From Deinococcales bacterium (lineage in GTDB: Bacteria; Deinococcota; Deinococci; Deinococcales; JAAFIG01): DNA of 64,000 nucleotides. Under the pieces are notes generated by a model that was given only the letters and a program-made list of their open reading frames with translations, had not been told where the DNA came from and did no database searches. How positions within the stretch are numbered: position 1 is the stretch's first letter; each line of letters begins with the position of its first letter. The position numbers were made by a program, and so were the translations under genes. Shown in pieces: positions 3,869 through 58,305 of this stretch. Location of the stretch: NCBI GenBank assembly GCA_043775825.1, contig JAYVRX010000071.1, forward strand, positions 20,399-84,398, in the 5' to 3' direction.

Positions 3869-5089
3869 TTAGCGAATGATTCTTGCTGGTTGAATGTTGG
3901 CGGCACGACGCGCGGGAATAAAACCAGCGACCAAGGTTGTCAATAGCGATGCGATGCTGACCCAAACAAAATCAAAAGCTTTCATTTGAGCTGGCAGGGC
4001 GGTAATAAAGTATAAATCTCCAGGTAGACGGTACGGATTGAGCGTGAAATACAGGCTTAACCCAAAGCCCAAAAGGTTGCCCAGAAGCATTCCCAAAAAC
4101 CCCAGCACAAAACCCTCGAGCAAGAAAACCTGTTGAATCACACTGGATTTTGCACCCATCGCCCGTAAAATCGCAATCTCGGGGGTTTTTTCAAAAACGG
4201 TCAAGACCAGAACGTTAACAATCCCGAACGCGGCAACGATCACGATAAGTAGCAGCACAATCGAAATGATGTTTTTTTGCAACTGCATCTGGGCAATCAA
4301 GGTTTGGTTGATGTCCTGCCAAGGACGACCATAAAAATTGGTTGGTTTGACCTTTCCAGGCTCGAGGTCGAGCGGCAAGGTGTTCGCTAAGCGAATGGCA
4401 CGTTCGGCGTCGGACAAACGCACGTGATAGCCCATGATGTTCTGTCCCAGCCCCATCAGGTCTTGCAAGGCTTGAATGCCAACAAAACCAAAAACACTGT
4501 CAATTTGGTAATTGCGGGTGCGAAACGTTCCAGAAAACCTAAATTTCTTTTTCACGGCACTCGAGATGTCCAAACCCTTGGTTGCCACCACGTAAATCGT
4601 GTCACCGACAATCAGCCGCATTGATCGTGCCAAGTCGTAACCCAATAAAATTCCGTCGGGTGGCAGTTGCTCGAGTTGAATTCGGTCTTCAGACTCGAGG
4701 TTTAACGCCCCAGCCTCACGCTTGGTGTCCACCCCGTACACTTGGGCAAAGCCCGTGCTGCCACCCTTACCGTTGCTGGCACGGCGCGTCAGCAAGCCTT
4801 GCGTGAACACGTAACGCGACCAACCCACCACCTCTTTGTTATTCAAAAGACGCTGCTCGAGTTTGGGGTCTGTTGGCGTGCCGCCCTGTTCTTGATCCCA
4901 GGCTTGAAGCGTGATGTGCGGTTGGGCTTTGATGGTCGTGTCAATCAGGGTTTTGACAAAACCATTGGTTAACGATAATGCCGTGGTCAAGACCATCACG
5001 CCAATCGCCACGCCAACAATCGAGATCAGGTTTTGGGTGCGTCTTCGTCGCAGGTGCGAACGGGCGAGTAACCAGATGAGCCGAGTCAT
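3869..5089 (-). CDS. LolC/LolE-family ABC transporter permease (MacB-like periplasmic domain plus FtsX)
   Basis: N-terminal TM, large periplasmic domain and C-terminal FtsX-like 3-TM bundle ending ...PARRAANIQPARIIR. Start chosen at MTRLIWLLARSHL. Confidence 0.75.
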   Translation of the reverse strand: MTRLIWLLARSHLRRRRTQNLISIVGVAIGVMVLTTALSLTNGFVKTLIDTTIKAQPHITLQAWDQEQGGTPTDPKLEQRLLNNKEVVGWSRYVFTQGLLTRRASNGKGGSTGFAQVYGVDTKREAGALNLESEDRIQLEQLPPDGILLGYDLARSMRLIVGDTIYVVATKGLDISSAVKKKFRFSGTFRTRNYQIDSVFGFVGIQALQDLMGLGQNIMGYHVRLSDAERAIRLANTLPLDLEPGKVKPTNFYGRPWQDINQTLIAQMQLQKNIISIVLLLIVIVAAFGIVNVLVLTVFEKTPEIAILRAMGAKSSVIQQVFLLEGFVLGFLGMLLGNLLGFGLSLYFTLNPYRLPGDLYFITALPAQMKAFDFVWVSIASLLTTLVAGFIPARRAANIQPARIIR

Positions 5090-51084: not shown

Positions 51085-52584
51085 ATGCTGACAGGAGAAA
51101 TTCGCAATCAAATAGACCGCGTTTGGGATGCTTTCTGGACGGGCGGCATCAGCAACCCGCTCGAGGTGATCGAACAACTGACCTACCTGCTGTTCATCAA
51201 ACGCCTCGATGACACGCACAAACTCGAGCTGAACAAACTGCAAACCATCGGTGAGGGCAAACTAATCTTCACCGAAGAGCAAGAACAATACCGTTGGAGC
51301 GTCTTTCAAAACGCCGAATCGGGCGATTTGTACAACATTATTGCCAACAAGGTCTTCCCATTCATCCGCGAGATGGGACAAGCCGACACCACCTTTGCGC
51401 GGCACATGAAAGACGCACGCTTTACCCTACCGCCAGAAAAAGCGGCGCTACTGACCAAAGTCGTGGATTTACTGAGCGCCATCAACATGGACAACCGCGA
51501 CACCAAAGGTGACCTGTACGAATATTTACTTTCCAAACTAGCCACCAGCGGACAAAACGGTCAATTTCGCACGCCAAGACACATCATCAAGTTAATCATC
51601 GAACTGACCCAACCAAATCCAGACGACATTATTTGCGACCCAGCCTGCGGCACAGCCGGATTTCTGGTCGCCGCGCTCGAGTACCTGATCGAGCATCACC
51701 GCAACGATATTTACAACAAAAAACGTCAGCATTTTGAAACCAAAATGTTCAACGCCTTCGATTTTGACAGTACTATGCTACGAATCGCCAGCATGAACAT
51801 GATGCTGCACGGCATCGCCAACGCCAACATTCAAAACAAAGACAGCCTCTCAGACACCAACGCCGACGCCAAAGAAGAATACAGCCTGATCCTCGCCAAC
51901 CCGCCGTTCAAAGGCAGTTTGCAATTTGAAACCGCCGCCAAAGACCTGGTGCGCGACTTGGGCATGAAAGCCCCCAAACCCAAAAAAGATGGCAAACCGA
52001 GCGGCGTGCAAGCCAAAACCGAACTGATGTTTTTGGTGTTGTTCTTACGCCTTTTAAAACCAGGTGGACGCTGCGCCGTGATTATCCCCGACGGTGTGCT
52101 GTTCGGCAGCAGCAACGCCCACCAAACCACCCGCAAAACCATCGTCGAAAATCATAAACTCGAGGCAATCATTTCCATGCCGAGCGGCGTTTTTAAACCT
52201 TACGCTGGCGTCAGCACCGCCATCATGATTTTTACCAAAACCGGCATTGGCGGCACGGACAACGTCTGGTTTTACGACATGCGAAGCGATGGTTACAGCC
52301 TGGATGACAAACGCAACCCAACCAACGACAACGACATTCCAGACATTATTCACCGTTACCGCAACCTCGAGGGTGAAACAAACCGTACCCGCACCGATCA
52401 AAGTTTTTTCGTACCAAAACCCGAGATTGCCGCGCAAAATTATGATCTCAGCATCAACCGGTACAAACAAACCGTGCATGAAGTCGTACAGCACGAAGCG
52501 CCACACAAAATCTTGGATGAACTCGAGGGTTTGGAACTCGAGATTGGGCAAGGTTTAAAAGAATTACGGGCGATGCTGACATGA
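51085..52584 (+). CDS. hsdM: type I restriction-modification system methyltransferase subunit
   Basis: HsdM N-terminal domain (IWDAFW-like VWDAFWTGG, YLLFIKRL), SAM motif DPACGTAGFL, catalytic NPPF. Confidence 0.95.
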   Translation: MLTGEIRNQIDRVWDAFWTGGISNPLEVIEQLTYLLFIKRLDDTHKLELNKLQTIGEGKLIFTEEQEQYRWSVFQNAESGDLYNIIANKVFPFIREMGQADTTFARHMKDARFTLPPEKAALLTKVVDLLSAINMDNRDTKGDLYEYLLSKLATSGQNGQFRTPRHIIKLIIELTQPNPDDIICDPACGTAGFLVAALEYLIEHHRNDIYNKKRQHFETKMFNAFDFDSTMLRIASMNMMLHGIANANIQNKDSLSDTNADAKEEYSLILANPPFKGSLQFETAAKDLVRDLGMKAPKPKKDGKPSGVQAKTELMFLVLFLRLLKPGGRCAVIIPDGVLFGSSNAHQTTRKTIVENHKLEAIISMPSGVFKPYAGVSTAIMIFTKTGIGGTDNVWFYDMRSDGYSLDDKRNPTNDNDIPDIIHRYRNLEGETNRTRTDQSFFVPKPEIAAQNYDLSINRYKQTVHEVVQHEAPHKILDELEGLELEIGQGLKELRAMLT

Positions 52585-52808
52585 ACTCGAGAATGGTGAA
52601 ATTAAATAAAAAAATAACAATAAATTCAATTCGGCAGACACTGTCTGCCGAATTCAGACCGATTCAACAAAATCAAATTCCGCAGACACTGTCTGCGGAA
52701 TTCAATAACCTTCAAAACCTCGAGCGCGAAGGGTGCAAGATGAAAAGTAAGACCGTGAAACTCGAGATTGGGCAAGGTTTAAAAGAATTGCGCGGGATGT
52801 TGGCATGA
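52585..52808 (+). mobile_element. 224-bp insert at the hsdM/hsdS junction: twin 27-nt palindromes plus a duplicated hsdM 3' end
   Basis: Palindromes AATTCGGCAGACACTGTCTGCCGAATT (52628-52654) and AATTCCGCAGACACTGTCTGCGGAATT (52676-52702). 52759-52808 repeats 52535-52584 (45/50). A 75-codon ORF spans the insert and is ATGA-coupled at both ends. Confidence 0.6.
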
Positions 52809-54034
52809 GTGATTTGAAGTTAAGAATAGAAGAGTTTTGCAAAACTGGAAGCGGAACTACTCCATCTCGAGAAAATTCTAACTACTACGCTGATGGCACG
52901 ATTCCGTGGGTCAAATCTGGTGAACTTAGAGAAAATTTAATACTTGGCACTGAGGAAACCATCACCGCCGAAGCCCTTAAAAAGACGAGCCTCAAACTTG
53001 TTCCGAAAGGTGCGATTTTGCTTGCTATGTATGGGGCGACAATTGGCAGAATGGCGATTCTGGGAATAGATGCAACGACAAATCAGGCTGTTTGCCACAT
53101 TATTCCAGATGAAAAAATGGCTGATACTCGATTTGTATATCGTGCTTTACAGCAAAAAATTCCTGAGTTAATTTCTCAGGCATCTGGTGGTGCTCAACCA
53201 AATATCAATCAACAGAAAATTAAAGCTCTCGAGATTCCCCTTCCGTCTCTCGAGCAGCAGCAACGAATCGCGCAGGTTTTGGATGCGGTGGATTCACTTT
53301 TAGGCAAACGTCGGGAGGGTTTGAAGAAGCTCGAGGTGTTGCTGAAAAGCGTGTTTTTGGAGATGTTTGGTGATCCTGTTACGAATCCTAAAGGTTGGGA
53401 AGAAGGTGTTTTGGGCGACGTAATTTATTCAGCTAAAGATGGTCCTCACGTAAGTCCTAAATATGCAGAGAAGGGTATTCCTTTTCTTTCAACAAGACAT
53501 ATTCGCCCAGGGAAGCTTATTCTTGAAGACTTAAAATACCTCTCTCCTCAAGAAGCGGATATCCATTGGAAAAAATGTAAACCTGAATTTGGAGACATCC
53601 TATACACAAAAGGCGGCACAACAGGGTTCGCCAAAGTTGTAGATTTCCATTTCGATTTCGCGGTTTGGGTTCACATAGCTGTGCTAAAAACGAACCATAA
53701 GTTGATCAATGGTTTATGGCTCGAGAATCTCTTGAATACTGAATATTGTTATTGGCAATCCCAAGAAAAAACTCATGGAATTGCTAATAAAGACCTCGGA
53801 CTTACACGAATGATAAATATAAAAATATTTATTCCGCCTCTCGAATTGCAGGCGAAATTCGCAGACACGGCGCGAAAAATAAATACTGAAACAGTTCTGC
53901 TCGAGAACTCTCTTTCTTCTCTCGAGAAACTTTTTGCTTCCCTTCAACACCAAGCCTTCAATGGCACGCTTTCGGCTGGGGTGCTCGAGCGGGAAGTGCA
54001 AAAACTCGGGGAGGTTCAGGCGGGGTTGTTCTGA
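52805..54034 (+). CDS. hsdS: type I restriction-modification system specificity subunit
   Basis: Two variable target-recognition domains separated by conserved helices (LPSLEQQQRIAQVLD..., PPLELQAKFA...). Confidence 0.9.
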   Translation: MSDLKLRIEEFCKTGSGTTPSRENSNYYADGTIPWVKSGELRENLILGTEETITAEALKKTSLKLVPKGAILLAMYGATIGRMAILGIDATTNQAVCHIIPDEKMADTRFVYRALQQKIPELISQASGGAQPNINQQKIKALEIPLPSLEQQQRIAQVLDAVDSLLGKRREGLKKLEVLLKSVFLEMFGDPVTNPKGWEEGVLGDVIYSAKDGPHVSPKYAEKGIPFLSTRHIRPGKLILEDLKYLSPQEADIHWKKCKPEFGDILYTKGGTTGFAKVVDFHFDFAVWVHIAVLKTNHKLINGLWLENLLNTEYCYWQSQEKTHGIANKDLGLTRMINIKIFIPPLELQAKFADTARKINTETVLLENSLSSLEKLFASLQHQAFNGTLSAGVLEREVQKLGEVQAGLF

Positions 54035-54077: not shown

Positions 54078-54449
54078 ATGGCGCGGTTGTACTTGTGTTT
54101 TAACCCGTATGAACCAAAACCAAAACGTGCGCCTTTGCTTTCGGATTGGCTCGAGTTGTGCTTGCATGGGAAGCAAGAATGCGTTAACAAAATGATTGAA
54201 ATGGTCGAAGATTTACACTCAGATGGGGTAGAAAGTCGGTACTTAAAATGGTTCGCGGGTGGTGTTGGCGAACTGAAAAGCCGAACTCCAATTGGTGGCG
54301 CTCGAGTTTACTTTTTTCGGATTGGCGAAGAAGATTTTGCTTTAACCCGCGCAGAATGCAAAAAAGAATCCGTTGCAGATCAGCAATTGATTGATTGGAC
54401 GTTTGAAGTGGCGACGCTGTACAAACAAGATGTGGAGGTGTTCTTATGA
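54078..54449 (+). CDS. RelE/HigB-like toxin of the phage Gp49 (DUF891) type
   Basis: ...GELKSRTPIGGARVYFFRIGEEDFALTRAECKKE.... 4-nt overlap with the downstream HTH gene. Confidence 0.55.
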   Translation: MARLYLCFNPYEPKPKRAPLLSDWLELCLHGKQECVNKMIEMVEDLHSDGVESRYLKWFAGGVGELKSRTPIGGARVYFFRIGEEDFALTRAECKKESVADQQLIDWTFEVATLYKQDVEVFL

Positions 54450-54832
54450 AAAAAGCTTTACCACCTCGAGAAAGTCTGCAATCGAGCATTGCCGAATTAA
54501 AAGCCATGCCTCTCGGAAGTATCATCTCGAGCGGACGTAAAGTGAGGGCAAAATCGGTGAGTGTTACTGACCTGAAACAAGATTTGTCAGATGCCTTGCT
54601 TGCCGAAAGTATTGGTGATTTGCTGCGTGAAGCCCGTTCTCGGCGGGGAATGACGGGTACGGAATTGGCTTCTAAATTGGGTACGAGCAAAGTGCGGGTT
54701 TCGCAACTCGAACATGCAGAATTAAATATTGAATTGGCGACTTTGGCTCGAGTGGCTGGTGTTCTGGGTTACGAGTTGCAGGTGGCTTTTGTGGCTGGTT
54801 CTGAACGTATTTCGCATCAGCACAAGGTTTGA
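54446..54832 (+). CDS. XRE-family HTH antitoxin (HigA-like)
   Basis: LREARSRRGMTGTELASKLGTSKVRVSQLEH. Confidence 0.7.
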   Translation: MKKALPPRESLQSSIAELKAMPLGSIISSGRKVRAKSVSVTDLKQDLSDALLAESIGDLLREARSRRGMTGTELASKLGTSKVRVSQLEHAELNIELATLARVAGVLGYELQVAFVAGSERISHQHKV

Positions 54833-54871: not shown

Positions 54872-54960
54872 AAATGTTGGGGTCTTGGCTTATTCTGTTA
54901 TTAACGTAGTGCATTTTGCGTATGGCAATTGCTCCACAACGCCCTATAATCAAAGCATCC

Positions 54961-57900
54961 ATGAGCAACTTCTTGTTCTTACAAAAAGACTTTCCAAACT
55001 TGTTTGAAGAGGCAAGACTTGCCGAACGCAACGCGCTTTCGGATGCCAGAGTCTCGAGTGTTTACGCCAGGCGCACGCTCGAGGCTCTGGTCAAATGGTT
55101 GTACGCGAACGACCCAGCGTTTACCAAACCGTATGACACGACCCTAAACGGTTTGATGGGGTCGGAGGCGTTTGAAAAAAACGTGCCTTACGCGGTCATT
55201 TTGTTGGCGCAAACCGTTCGCAAAAAAGGCAATGCGGCGGCGCATGACACCAAAAATATTGCGGTTTCCGAGGCGCTGGCGCTGCTTCGGGATTTGTTTT
55301 TGGTGCTGCATTGGTTCGCGCATTTGTACCGTGCAGATGCCGCGCAAGTGCTGTCGGTAAGTTTTGATGAAACGCTTGTGCCGCCGGCGCTGGCGGACGT
55401 GCAACAAAAAACCTTGAGCGAAATTCAGACGCTCGAGAGGGCTTTAAAAGAAAAGATTGATGCGCTCGAGTCTGAACGTGCCGAGTCTGCCAGTGCAAAG
55501 GCAGAATTGGCAGCTTTGCGTGCGCAAATGGTGGCGCGTAAAACCACCAACTTCCAAACTGGTATTTCAACACCGTTCTCGGAGGCACAAACCCGTGAAC
55601 GCCTGATCGATTTAATGCTCCAGGAGGCGGGTTGGGATTTGAGCGCGTCCAACATCCGCGAGGTCAGCACCGGCGCGGGCAGGGCAGATTACGTGCTGTG
55701 GGGGCAAGACGGTTTGCCGCTGGCGGTGATCGAAGCCAAAAAAACCTCGCGCGACCCTCGGGTTGGACAAAAACAGGCGCTCGATTATGCGCAGGCGCTC
55801 GAGAAACAATACGGGCGTTTGCCAATTGTTTTTTACAGCAACGGCGTTAAAACTTTTGTTTGGGACAAAGCGCGTGGTTATCCGCCCCGAACCGTGCAAG
55901 GTTTTTACAGCCAAGACGACTTGGAGTTAATGATTCAACGCCGCAAAACGGCGCTTAAACTCGAGGATGTCAGCATCAACCAAGGCATTGCGGATCGTTA
56001 CTATCAACAGACGGCGATTCGTAAATTCTCGGATCGGTTGGAAGGGTTTCACCGCAAAGGTTTGCTGGTCATGGCGACGGGTACGGGCAAAACTCGAGTT
56101 ACGATTGCGCTGATCGAACTTTTAATGCGAGCCAACTGGGTCAAACGCGTGTTGTTTCTGGCAGACCGTAACGCCCTGGTGCGGCAAGCCAAAAAAGCTT
56201 TTGTGCGCCATTACCCTGCCGCAAATGCCATAAACCTGGTCGAAGAAAAAGATGTGACTGGCGCTCGGGTGGTTTTAAGCACGTATCACACCATGATGCG
56301 GCAACTCGAGGCTGGGGCGTTCACGGTTGGGCATTTTGATTTGATTGTGATTGACGAGGCGCACCGCAGCATTTACAGCACTTTTGGCAGTATTTTCGCG
56401 TATTTTGACGCGATGCTGTTGGGTTTGACCGCCACACCGCGCGATGAGGTAGATCGTAACACTTACGGCTTGTTCGACATGCACGACAACGTGCCCGTTT
56501 TCGAGTACGGCTTGGAGCAGGCGGTGCGCGACGGTTTTCTTGTCCCGCCGGCGTCGTTTCGGGTGAACGCCAAGTTTTTACGCGAGGGCATCACTTACGA
56601 CGAGCTTTCCGATGTTGAAAAACAAGAATACGACGAGATTGACTGGGAAGAACACGGCGGGCGGCGCGAACAAATTCAGAACACCGAACTTTACAAATGG
56701 TTGTTCAACAAAGACACCGTAGATCAAGTGCTCGAGTCTCTGATGACGCACGGTTTAAAAGTGTCTGGTCAGGACGTGCTGGGCAAAACCATTATTTTCG
56801 CGCAGAGCATCGCGCACGCCCAGTTTATTCAAGAACGTTTTGATCTCAATTACCCGCACCTGGCAGGCACATACGCCCAGGTGATTGCCAACAACATTGA
56901 GCGCAGCGACCAGTTGATAGACCAATTCAGCGAAACGCTAATGCCGCGCATTGCCATCAGTGTGGACATGCTCGACACGGGTATTGACGTGCCAGAAATT
57001 CTGAATTTGGTGTTTTTTAAACGGGTGCAAAGCAAAACCAAATTCTGGCAGATGCTCGGACGCGGCACGCGTTTAAGTGAGAATATTTTTGGTGCTGGAC
57101 AGCACAAAACCCAATTTGCACTGTTTGACTTTTGTGGCAACCTCGAATTTTTCAACGCGCACCCAAAAGGCATTGAAGCCACAGTAACCCAGTCGCTCGA
57201 GCAACGGTTGTTTAAACTGCGGGTTGATGTGCTGCAAGCTTTAGAAGCCCAAACCGATGACCCAGAAACCCAAGTCTTGCACAGCGACCATGCCAATGTT
57301 TTGCATGAACGAATTTGTGCGATGCCGCAAAACAATTTTTTGGTTCGTCCGCACCTGGAACTGATCGAACGGTTCTCGAACCGCGACGCTTGGAATACCC
57401 TTTCGCGTCTGGACGCCAGGGACATCAAAACCGAACTCTCCAATTTGCCAAGTGCCATTGTTGACAACGACGAGAATGCAAAGCGCTTTGATTCACTGAT
57501 TTTTCAAGCCAGCCTGGGCATTCTCGAGGGCGCACCCAGAAGTGGGGTACAAAACCGGATTCAGGCGCTGTGCGCTGGACTTGAGCGCAAACGAAACGTG
57601 CCGCAAATCAAAGCGAATTTAACTTTAATTCAAGACCTTCAAACCCCAGATTTCTGGGCGAACGCCAGCGCCTCTCATCTCGAGGACGTTCGTTTGCGGC
57701 TGCGCGGTTTGATGGCTTTAATTGATGCCGAGGAACGCGCCGCCAGACTCGAGACGGACTTTGAAGATCAATTTGGAATCCCTGAAGCCCTGGCGTTAAA
57801 TGCTTTGGACATCAACATTGACCGCGAGGCGTACCATAAAAAAGTTGAGGCTTTCATTCACACGCATTTAAAACATCCAGTGATTCAAAAATTACGACTC

Positions 57901-58305
57901 GCGCAACCGCTCAACCCCGCCGATCTACGCACCCTCGAAGAATTTTTGTTCAATGCCCGCGAACTCGAATCTCGAGCCACCTTTGAATGGGCTTACGGCA
58001 CCCAAAACAACCTGGGACGGTTTATTCGCAGTTTGGTCGGTTTGGATCGGGCGGCAGCCAAAACCGCCTTTGGCACGTACTTGGACGGTAAAACCTTCTC
58101 GAGCGACCAGATTCTATTTGTCAATTTCATCATTGATGCCCTCACCCATAACGGCACGATGAGCCAGCAGGCTTTGTTTGAAGCCCCGTTTACCGACATT
58201 CACACGCAAGGCATCAATGGTTTGTTCAACCCAGATCAAGTGCAGGCATTGCTGGCAACCTTAAATCAATTGAACACGATTGAAACCAAACCGATGCTTG
58301 GATAA
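54961..58305 (+). CDS. hsdR: type I restriction endonuclease subunit R with N-terminal DUF4145-like domain
   Basis: N-terminal FPNLFEEARLAE...GNAAAHD, nuclease core (ADYVLW...IEAKK), helicase motifs MATGTGKT and DEAH (VIDEAHRS), and an EcoEI-R-like C-terminal domain. Confidence 0.9.
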   Translation: MSNFLFLQKDFPNLFEEARLAERNALSDARVSSVYARRTLEALVKWLYANDPAFTKPYDTTLNGLMGSEAFEKNVPYAVILLAQTVRKKGNAAAHDTKNIAVSEALALLRDLFLVLHWFAHLYRADAAQVLSVSFDETLVPPALADVQQKTLSEIQTLERALKEKIDALESERAESASAKAELAALRAQMVARKTTNFQTGISTPFSEAQTRERLIDLMLQEAGWDLSASNIREVSTGAGRADYVLWGQDGLPLAVIEAKKTSRDPRVGQKQALDYAQALEKQYGRLPIVFYSNGVKTFVWDKARGYPPRTVQGFYSQDDLELMIQRRKTALKLEDVSINQGIADRYYQQTAIRKFSDRLEGFHRKGLLVMATGTGKTRVTIALIELLMRANWVKRVLFLADRNALVRQAKKAFVRHYPAANAINLVEEKDVTGARVVLSTYHTMMRQLEAGAFTVGHFDLIVIDEAHRSIYSTFGSIFAYFDAMLLGLTATPRDEVDRNTYGLFDMHDNVPVFEYGLEQAVRDGFLVPPASFRVNAKFLREGITYDELSDVEKQEYDEIDWEEHGGRREQIQNTELYKWLFNKDTVDQVLESLMTHGLKVSGQDVLGKTIIFAQSIAHAQFIQERFDLNYPHLAGTYAQVIANNIERSDQLIDQFSETLMPRIAISVDMLDTGIDVPEILNLVFFKRVQSKTKFWQMLGRGTRLSENIFGAGQHKTQFALFDFCGNLEFFNAHPKGIEATVTQSLEQRLFKLRVDVLQALEAQTDDPETQVLHSDHANVLHERICAMPQNNFLVRPHLELIERFSNRDAWNTLSRLDARDIKTELSNLPSAIVDNDENAKRFDSLIFQASLGILEGAPRSGVQNRIQALCAGLERKRNVPQIKANLTLIQDLQTPDFWANASASHLEDVRLRLRGLMALIDAEERAARLETDFEDQFGIPEALALNALDINIDREAYHKKVEAFIHTHLKHPVIQKLRLAQPLNPADLRTLEEFLFNARELESRATFEWAYGTQNNLGRFIRSLVGLDRAAAKTAFGTYLDGKTFSSDQILFVNFIIDALTHNGTMSQQALFEAPFTDIHTQGINGLFNPDQVQALLATLNQLNTIETKPMLG

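Follow-up and report, generated by a model that had tools for sequence, protein, structure and literature searches.

A probable remnant of the nuclease gene yhcG, with twin coding palindromes, at the hsdM-hsdS junction of a Deinococcales type I restriction-modification operon

The hsdM-hsdS junction and its insert

The stretch of DNA considered here (the window) comprises 64,000 nucleotides of contig JAYVRX010000071.1 (positions 20,399 to 84,398, forward strand) in the Deinococcales bacterium assembly GCA_043775825.1, and encodes a type I restriction-modification (R-M) operon that is complete around a 174-bp insert between hsdM and hsdS, with full-length hsdM, hsdS and hsdR identified by Pfam on the three open reading frames (ORFs). 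The insert is very probably what decay has left of a yhcG gene of ~1.06 kb, coding for a DUF1016 protein with a PD-(D/E)XK nuclease domain (PADLOC candidate PDC-S02), which was once sited between hsdM and hsdS. The genome of the window (G000) is compared below with one of the same genus (G004, locus L013) and one of another genus of the same bacterial family (G006, locus L006). The features of the locus are the following.

51085-52584, + strand: hsdM, type I R-M methylase subunit, 499 aa (Pfam N6_Mtase 2.9e-65, HsdM_N 3.8e-17), 91% amino acid identity to the G004 hsdM
52532-52584, + strand: hsdM tail, direct-repeat copy 1 (repeat family D1), ending in ATGA; orthologous to G004 L013:4784-4843
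52581-52808, + strand: ORF75, chimeric bridging frame of 75 codons, ATGA-coupled at both ends, with its start in the hsdM-stop ATGA and its stop in the hsdS-start ATGA
52581-52604, + strand: 24 nt resembling an hsdS 5' end (MNSRMVKL); the first 16 nt equal the G004 hsdS start (L013:7265-7280), and 20/24 match the G006 hsdS start (L006:1444-1467)
52605-52621, + strand: AT-rich filler of 17 nt, without alignable counterpart in G004 or G006
52622-52656, + strand: tandem unit 1 with palindrome 1, peptide IRQTLSAEF, in the form of the yhcG-family palindrome
52670-52704, + strand: tandem unit 2 with palindrome 2, IPQTLSAEF in the native yhcG frame; against L013:5129-5168 the palindrome matches at 27/27, and at 38/40 with its flanks
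52709-52724, + strand: probable deletion junction, with CTCGAG at 52719-52724; the left side corresponds to CTCGG at L013:5179-5183, the right side to CTCGAG at L013:5867-5872
52716-52750, + strand: probable last ~35 nt of yhcG, with the native-frame TAA stop at 52748-52750; part of a 94-nt block matching L013:5864-5957 at 75/94, and out of frame in ORF75
52756-52808, + strand: hsdM tail, direct-repeat copy 2, ending in the hsdS-starting ATGA; orthologous to G004 tail copy 2 (L013:5897-5956)
52805-54034, + strand: hsdS, specificity subunit, 409 aa (Pfam Methylase_S 7.4e-41, two stretches)
54916-58305, + strand: hsdR, context, 1129 aa (Pfam ResIII, EcoEI_R_C, HSDR_N)

The two hsdM tails form a direct repeat longer than 30 bp and unique in the genome, of 53 nt at 89% identity in the window (52532-52584 and 52756-52808) and of 60 nt at 83% in G004. 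An earlier note, made from the letters of the window alone, had described this duplication over a shorter span of 50 nt, and the sequence bears out its 45/50 matches, the spacing of 174 bp between the two spans and the preservation of the ATGA junction with hsdS by the second copy. The second tail copies of G000 and G004 both read TGAAAC where the first copies have TGGAA. A 253-nt piece of the junction (52536-52788) recurs without difference, at the depth of its flanks, in public contigs from the sediment sample that is the probable source, so that an assembly artefact confined to this record is excluded. The source-sample contigs are exact and end at the repeated hsdM tails, and no alternative joint was seen in them, contigs being unable to show rare alleles.

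The insert contains two perfect palindromes of 27 nt (52628-52654 and 52676-52702), each with 13-bp arms and one central base, which start 48 nt apart. As the earlier note reported, they differ by one base and by its compensatory change: G to C in the left arm converts CGG (Arg) to CCG (Pro), and C to G in the right arm converts GCC to GCG, both coding for Ala. The arms covary between the two copies, in agreement with the proposal that the hairpin is conserved, and since the left-arm change is non-synonymous and the right-arm change synonymous, the symmetry has been kept at the expense of the peptide. Each palindrome is localised in one of two tandem 35-nt units (52622-52656 and 52670-52704; repeat family D3, 89% identity), the 17-nt core of the palindrome has four matches in the window against 0.07 expected, and the folding of a 241-nt stretch compared with shuffled sequences gives z = -4.2. 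The 75-codon frame that had been noticed to run across the insert, ATGA-coupled to hsdM and to hsdS, is likewise present.

An intact yhcG at the orthologous junction

A DNA search of 60 relatives yielded a single informative genome of the same genus, G004, in which hsdM is followed by an ATGA-coupled yhcG of 352 aa, a 60-nt second hsdM tail, a DUF4143 ATPase gene and hsdS. The 352-aa ORF contains DUF1016_N (3.5e-44) and the YhcG_C PD-(D/E)XK nuclease domain (1.1e-59), and the protein matches PDC-S02 at 7e-137. Codons ~99-111 of this gene contain the window palindrome without a mismatch (the 38/40 match with flanks covering window positions 52669-52708), while window positions 52716-52809 align at 75/94 with the yhcG 3' end and tail copy 2. 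Absent from the window are 688 nt of the G004 gene, between CTCGG (L013:5179) and CTCGAG (L013:5867), and one CTCGAG stands at the window joint. Because the G004 yhcG has the same palindrome and the same 3' end at the same hsdM-hsdS junction, the insert is best taken as the wreck of an orthologous yhcG; position, flanking repeat and DNA homology are all common to the window insert and the intact gene. What the earlier note called a mini-insertion would thus be the residue of a ~1.06-kb gene after internal deletion, and the annotation is corrected to a pseudogene remnant instead of a mobile element, small RNA or micro-protein. ORF75 has no Pfam match to DUF1016_N or YhcG_C, the part coding for the latter being deleted here. 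In G004, the DUF4143/AAA_14 ATPase gene between yhcG and hsdS (L013:5994-7250) matches PADLOC PDC-S01 at 9e-164, so that two defence-candidate genes are stacked there.

YhcG is a predicted PD-(D/E)XK nuclease with an uncharacterised helical N domain (Kosinski et al. 2005, PMC1189080). Genes for DUF1016 proteins have been found between type I R-M core genes (Milman et al. 2023, PMC9881135) and as cargo of mobile elements (PMC4316617). The window locus resembles such embedded genes in the gene family and in the hsdM-yhcG-hsdS slot, as seen in the sister genome G004, but its own copy is destroyed, with the palindrome-bearing linker and the last ~35 nt left. Elsewhere in the assembly, yhcG is represented solely by an N-domain-only ORF of 218 aa with an 11/13 palindrome (G000:C67:9190-12600; L016:1318-1974, minus strand), and a YhcG_C domain was found over cut-off nowhere in the assembly, which is 79% complete. 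Foldseek with the G004 YhcG matched the C-terminal nuclease domain alone, to NucS/EndoMS, Can2 and NucC, and gave nothing clear for the N domain; a profile of 13 YhcG proteins found no match among PDB sequences.

The shortness of the insert, its palindromes and the direct repeat around it would suit a mobile element that duplicated its target, resembling a miniature inverted-repeat transposable element (MITE), as the earlier note considered, or a repetitive extragenic palindromic (REP) element. This origin is nevertheless extremely improbable. In a genome-wide palindrome search of the 4.5-Mb assembly, the two palindromes proved to be the sole copies with up to 2 mismatches allowed, and none similar occurs among the perfect palindromes with stems of at least 10, so that the search for further hairpin copies which had been recommended returned only the two already described. 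The insert has no terminal inverted repeats, its hairpins being internal only, the same flanking repeat encloses a whole gene in G004, and the dispersed palindrome families present in the genome look different. Two such families are a 37-nt palindrome beginning CGTTTTGGTTGATAAAC, with at least 14 copies, and a ~29-nt palindrome with the core GGGGATGGTCT, with ~9 copies; both are unrelated to the insert, and examples of their copies lie outside the window at G000:C71:12397-12433, C17:11755-11791 and C51:84518-84554.

Junction history and the bridging frame

A third state of the junction is found in G006, where an orthologous hsdM (84% amino acid identity) precedes an insert of ~300 nt with a GC-rich palindromic element, a second copy of the hsdM tail, and hsdS. 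Running through this REP-like element is an ORF of 100 codons that is ATGA-coupled at both ends, to hsdM and to hsdS (L006:1145-1447). The comparison of hsdM-hsdS junctions in relatives, which had been suggested as a check, thus reveals a three-state series of one junction: an intact nuclease gene (G004), a wreck with hairpins (G000) and a wreck without them (G006). No empty junction was found among the 60 relatives and 19 genomes of the family, in which an orthologous hsdM occurs only in G004 and G006, both with inserts. The series illustrates the arrival of accessory defence genes within type I R-M operons and their later erosion, with the coupling on which hsdS depends left unbroken.

Judging from the three genomes, yhcG would have entered the hsdM-hsdS junction before the divergence of G000 and G004, perhaps before the split of genus g2, and its entry would have been accompanied by duplication of the last 55-80 nt of hsdM. 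The first tail copy would then have supplied yhcG, and the second hsdS, with an ATGA overlap of stop and start codons. An alignment of six junction halves indicates that the second tail copies of G000 and G004 are orthologous and that the homology of the second copy to hsdM extends over ~75-80 nt, so that the last yhcG codons are read from the duplicated hsdM tail. In the window lineage, ~690 bp would later have been lost between two CTCGAG-type sites; this deletion would have removed the remainder of the N domain and the entire nuclease domain, the 5' 285 nt of yhcG having no surviving counterpart.

Repeats around yhcG also occur elsewhere. Among 49 yhcG loci tested, an upstream/downstream repeat is strong in three besides G004. 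In a Pseudomonadota metagenome-assembled genome (MAG; L110), 100 nt of hsdM tail lie at both sides of yhcG (2851-2950 and 4029-4128), and in a Bacteroidales MAG (L059) 21/21 nt of hsdR tail are repeated around it (2936-2956 and 4012-4032), the copies ending in ATGA in both. The repeat in L095 is a tandem gene duplication. The arrangement in the window resembles insertion with long target duplication (Nobusato 2000; Furuta, Abe & Kobayashi 2010, PMC2853133) in its unique local repeat of more than 30 bp and in an insert without recombinase or transposase, and differs in its cargo, an accessory nuclease gene, the 2010 study having used R and M genes as its criterion (PMC2853133), and in its repeat, a gene tail with an ATGA coupling junction.

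A possible though somewhat doubtful alternative is that the two hsdM tails are the recombination scar of two hsd operons, or result from Campbell-type entry of a circle carrying yhcG and an hsdM tail. In keeping with such an event, the sequences after the two ATGA motifs differ, with a G004/G006-type hsdS-like start after copy 1 and another hsdS allele after copy 2. The middle part of the tails is common to both copies within a genome and not between genomes, which suggests conversion between the copies, and hsd-tail brackets around yhcG recur in unrelated phyla, as seen in L110 and L059. Without an empty site, however, such a scar is indistinguishable from insertion with long target duplication, and both origins leave the insert identified as a wreck of yhcG.

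ORF75 is a patchwork: after an hsdS-like start it reads the linker of yhcG in frame, then the end of that gene in another frame, and finally the tail of hsdM. It carries the palindromes in the native yhcG frame and the yhcG end out of frame because 688 is not a multiple of three; it passes the native yhcG TAA (52748-52750) and then crosses tail copy 2 in the hsdM frame. Shuffled interiors are stop-free with a chance of 0.022 for ORF75 and 0.037 for the bridging ORF of G006, each to be multiplied by 1/3 for the length class. Translational coupling across a 1-nt overlap of hsdM and hsdS has been established for EcoKI (Roberts et al. 2012, PMC3510504). The window shares this 1-nt ATGA stop/start overlap, but here the ATGA junction occurs twice with a 75-codon frame between, and coupling is predicted at both from the sequence. 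Ribosomes ending hsdM would restart at the first ATGA, traverse ORF75 and stop at the second ATGA, which is the hsdS start; the coupling of hsdM to hsdS would thereby be relayed, and the wreck, its nuclease function gone, would be at most a 75-codon spacer frame. The hsdS of G004, which is uncoupled, has a strong AGGAG site. As both wrecks are open from ATGA to ATGA, coupling is established for EcoKI and the uncoupled hsdS has its AGGAG, there is about an even chance that the deletions tolerated at this junction would be those that keep a relay frame.

The object is thus of an ordinary kind, an accessory gene that has decayed within an R-M operon and is flanked by a long repeat, and it bears an unusual feature of its family. 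What is new is that the remnant can still be read from ATGA to ATGA without a stop, as can the different one in G006, which fits selection to relay the coupling. If relay frames are indeed selected, short junction ORFs that look like junk have a simple job, and annotators should keep them. The earlier note also proposed a small adaptor peptide gene, and the open frame coupled at both ends, together with the last 15 residues of ORF75, which copy the HsdM C-terminus, could speak for a functional protein between HsdM and HsdS. This is very improbable, however: ORF75 belongs to no Pfam family, it found only itself among 5.8 billion proteins, with no relative of 41-132 aa or longer, its sequence is a chimera of four unrelated pieces, and the bridging ORF of G006 is unrelated to it in sequence.

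Several points weigh against the reading of the insert as an eroded yhcG with a relay frame. The left 84 nt of the insert (52585-52668) show no homology to the G004 yhcG except for the palindrome itself, and tandem unit 1 could have arisen later by local duplication. The match to an hsdS start is short and contains CTCGAG, a hexamer ~40 times commoner than expected in this genome. The order of events, insertion and then decay, is inferred, because no relative with an empty junction was found; the G006 insert may retain a trace of the yhcG end, to which its homology is weak. The open-frame cases (window and G006) are few and partly of shared ancestry.

The coding palindrome of yhcG

DUF1016_N genes are found in 17 of the 19 genomes of the bacterial family of the window, with up to eight matches per genome. 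A motif hidden Markov model run on six-frame translations, and hence blind to DNA symmetry, recovered 29 family copies, all but one of which carry a palindrome at the same nine codons, directly upstream of a conserved (S/P)W(S/G)H motif. In the gap-free alignment of these copies, 94.7% of the cells pair, against 25-45% with slid partners; changes on both sides occur in 9 of the 13 pairs (87 cells), and the inner pairs have no one-sided (G-U) states. Both palindromes of the window fit this family form of ~27 bp, in frame, encoding I-x3-[LV]-x3-[LF] and with covarying arms. The encoded peptides are diverse (IVQQLVGQL, IVATLWRQL, FVQQAAAQI, IPQTLSAEF) with constant hydrophobic positions 1, 5 and 9, which are specified by the fixed outer and central bases of the palindrome. 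In the AlphaFold model of the G004 YhcG, the palindrome-coded residues lie between helices, where confidence in the N domain is lowest (predicted local distance difference test, pLDDT, 54).

The feature extends across phyla. A set of 52 from 80 loci, recovered by nuclease-domain motifs and not by the palindrome region, includes Planctomycetota, Pseudomonadota, Bacteroidota, Actinomycetota, Bacillota, Omnitrophota and Campylobacterota; in 34 of these 52 genes the 150 nt preceding the anchor contain a perfect stem of at least 8, as do only 3 of 239 control spans from the same genes. When the codons were resampled from each gene's own usage (synonymous recoding), the mean best stem fell from 9.2 to 4.9 in the family and from 7.9 to 4.8 in the broad set, and at most 5% of the resamples reached the observed stem in 14 of 19 family genes and 35 of 52 broad-set genes. 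Mismatches in the stems show no preference for wobble pairs (11 G.T and 8 A.C), which suggests that the symmetry belongs to the DNA and not to an RNA hairpin, small as these numbers are. The yhcG of E. coli K-12 has a 12/13 palindrome copy closely resembling that of the window.

Two or three tandem palindrome copies are frequent in intact yhcG genes, and that of Flavobacterium muglaense (L060) reads IPQTVSAELKNQIPQSVTAEFNN, much like the window. Since intact genes often bear tandem copies, the twin palindromes of the window are native to the gene: rather than being picked up at the junction, they are two tandem copies of yhcG's own in-frame 27-bp palindrome. The exact 29-mer of the window is found in 32 metagenome contigs, in ~27 of them within a full-length yhcG at codon ~97-102 and in a few (L131, L134, L152, L157) in fragments or solitary. 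Within these contigs (L130-L161), the identical 29-nt palindrome stands amid differing flanks, as in FYVRYS-IPQTLSAEF-KLSWSHY, FYLSRP-IRQTLSAEF-NKITSPDS and KKTP-IRQTLSAEF-TNRFTLSWSHY. By this comparison, the palindrome unit is apparently either more conserved than its surroundings or exchanged between yhcG genes.

No literature linking DUF1016 or YhcG to a palindrome or hairpin was found, and the family-wide covarying coding palindrome is apparently undescribed in print; the window locus is an independent sighting of it. Conserved perfect inverted repeats, and the correction of quasi-palindromes by template switching (Lavi et al. 2018, PMC5941160; Ripley model), are alike in that the arms change together with Watson-Crick pairing and no excess of G.T, and in that the window copy is still perfect after the loss of yhcG. 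In contrast to those systems, the yhcG palindrome keeps to a single codon position in a single gene family, whatever the phylum, is in frame and overrides the peptide (Arg to Pro). The Rickettsia palindromic elements (Ogata et al. 2000, 2002; cited in PMC4316617) are also in-frame palindromes tolerated in coding genes as surface or linker segments, but are ~100-150 bp long and occur in many unrelated genes of one genome, whereas the yhcG unit is 27 bp long and occurs in one gene family of many genomes. The palindrome may have a function or may reflect a self-perpetuating mutation bias. It is unlikely that it is a working DNA site (hairpin, cruciform or symmetric binding site) for the entry, exit or rearrangement of the cassette which has outlived the gene. 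Were it one, the twin copies would be an active remnant still shaping rearrangement or expression at hsdM-hsdS, and not a fossil.

The regulatory hairpin pair suggested by the earlier note stands only in a weaker form, namely that the open frame looks kept for coupling; the hairpins themselves are inherited from yhcG and did not evolve for hsdS. It is quite unlikely that they are retained as an RNA or DNA signal (processing site, ribosome brake or attenuator) setting the output of hsdS relative to hsdM. The perfection of both palindromes, the folding of the region (z = -4.2) and the identity of palindrome 2 to G004 over 27/27 nt, against 80-85% in the flanks, would be expected of such a signal, but the palindromes are as perfect in intact yhcG genes elsewhere, and G006 retains the junction and the open frame without these hairpins. 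No T-run follows the hairpins on the sense strand, on which no intrinsic terminator site was found at them; terminator-like sites are antisense only and not enriched (4 against 2.1 +/- 1.9). No Rfam family was matched, a scan of 52300-53000 with E up to 10 giving only chance matches far below threshold. In a further yhcG wreck, between pheT and pheS of G004, the two palindromes have decayed and retain 10/13 and 11/13 pairs. In the reading of the insert as a yhcG wreck, the hairpins would be passengers, their perfection resulting from the recency of the deletion, from arm-to-arm template switching (PMC5941160), or from both.

The pheT-pheS wreck in G004 is an older fossil (contig C77, L014:3050-3125). 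At this site, a further genome, G014, has an intact yhcG and a GNAT gene between pheS and pheT (L015:2957-4057), and no second fossil was seen in the corresponding spacer of G000. Within the hsd operon of the window, a two-gene cassette lies between hsdS and hsdR (54078-54832), coding for a 123-aa protein without an assigned role and a 128-aa HTH_3 protein. The hexamer CTCGAG occurs 427 times in the 64 kb of the window, approximately once per 150 bp, against 10 +/- 3 expected, and is also dense in G004 and G006. Around the insert it is found, for example, at 52363-52371, 52537-52542, 52586-52591, 52719-52724 and 52761-52766, and the yhcG deletion joint and several repeat edges fall on it. As a hyper-abundant palindromic hexamer, CTCGAG is reminiscent of the cyanobacterial highly iterated palindrome HIP1.

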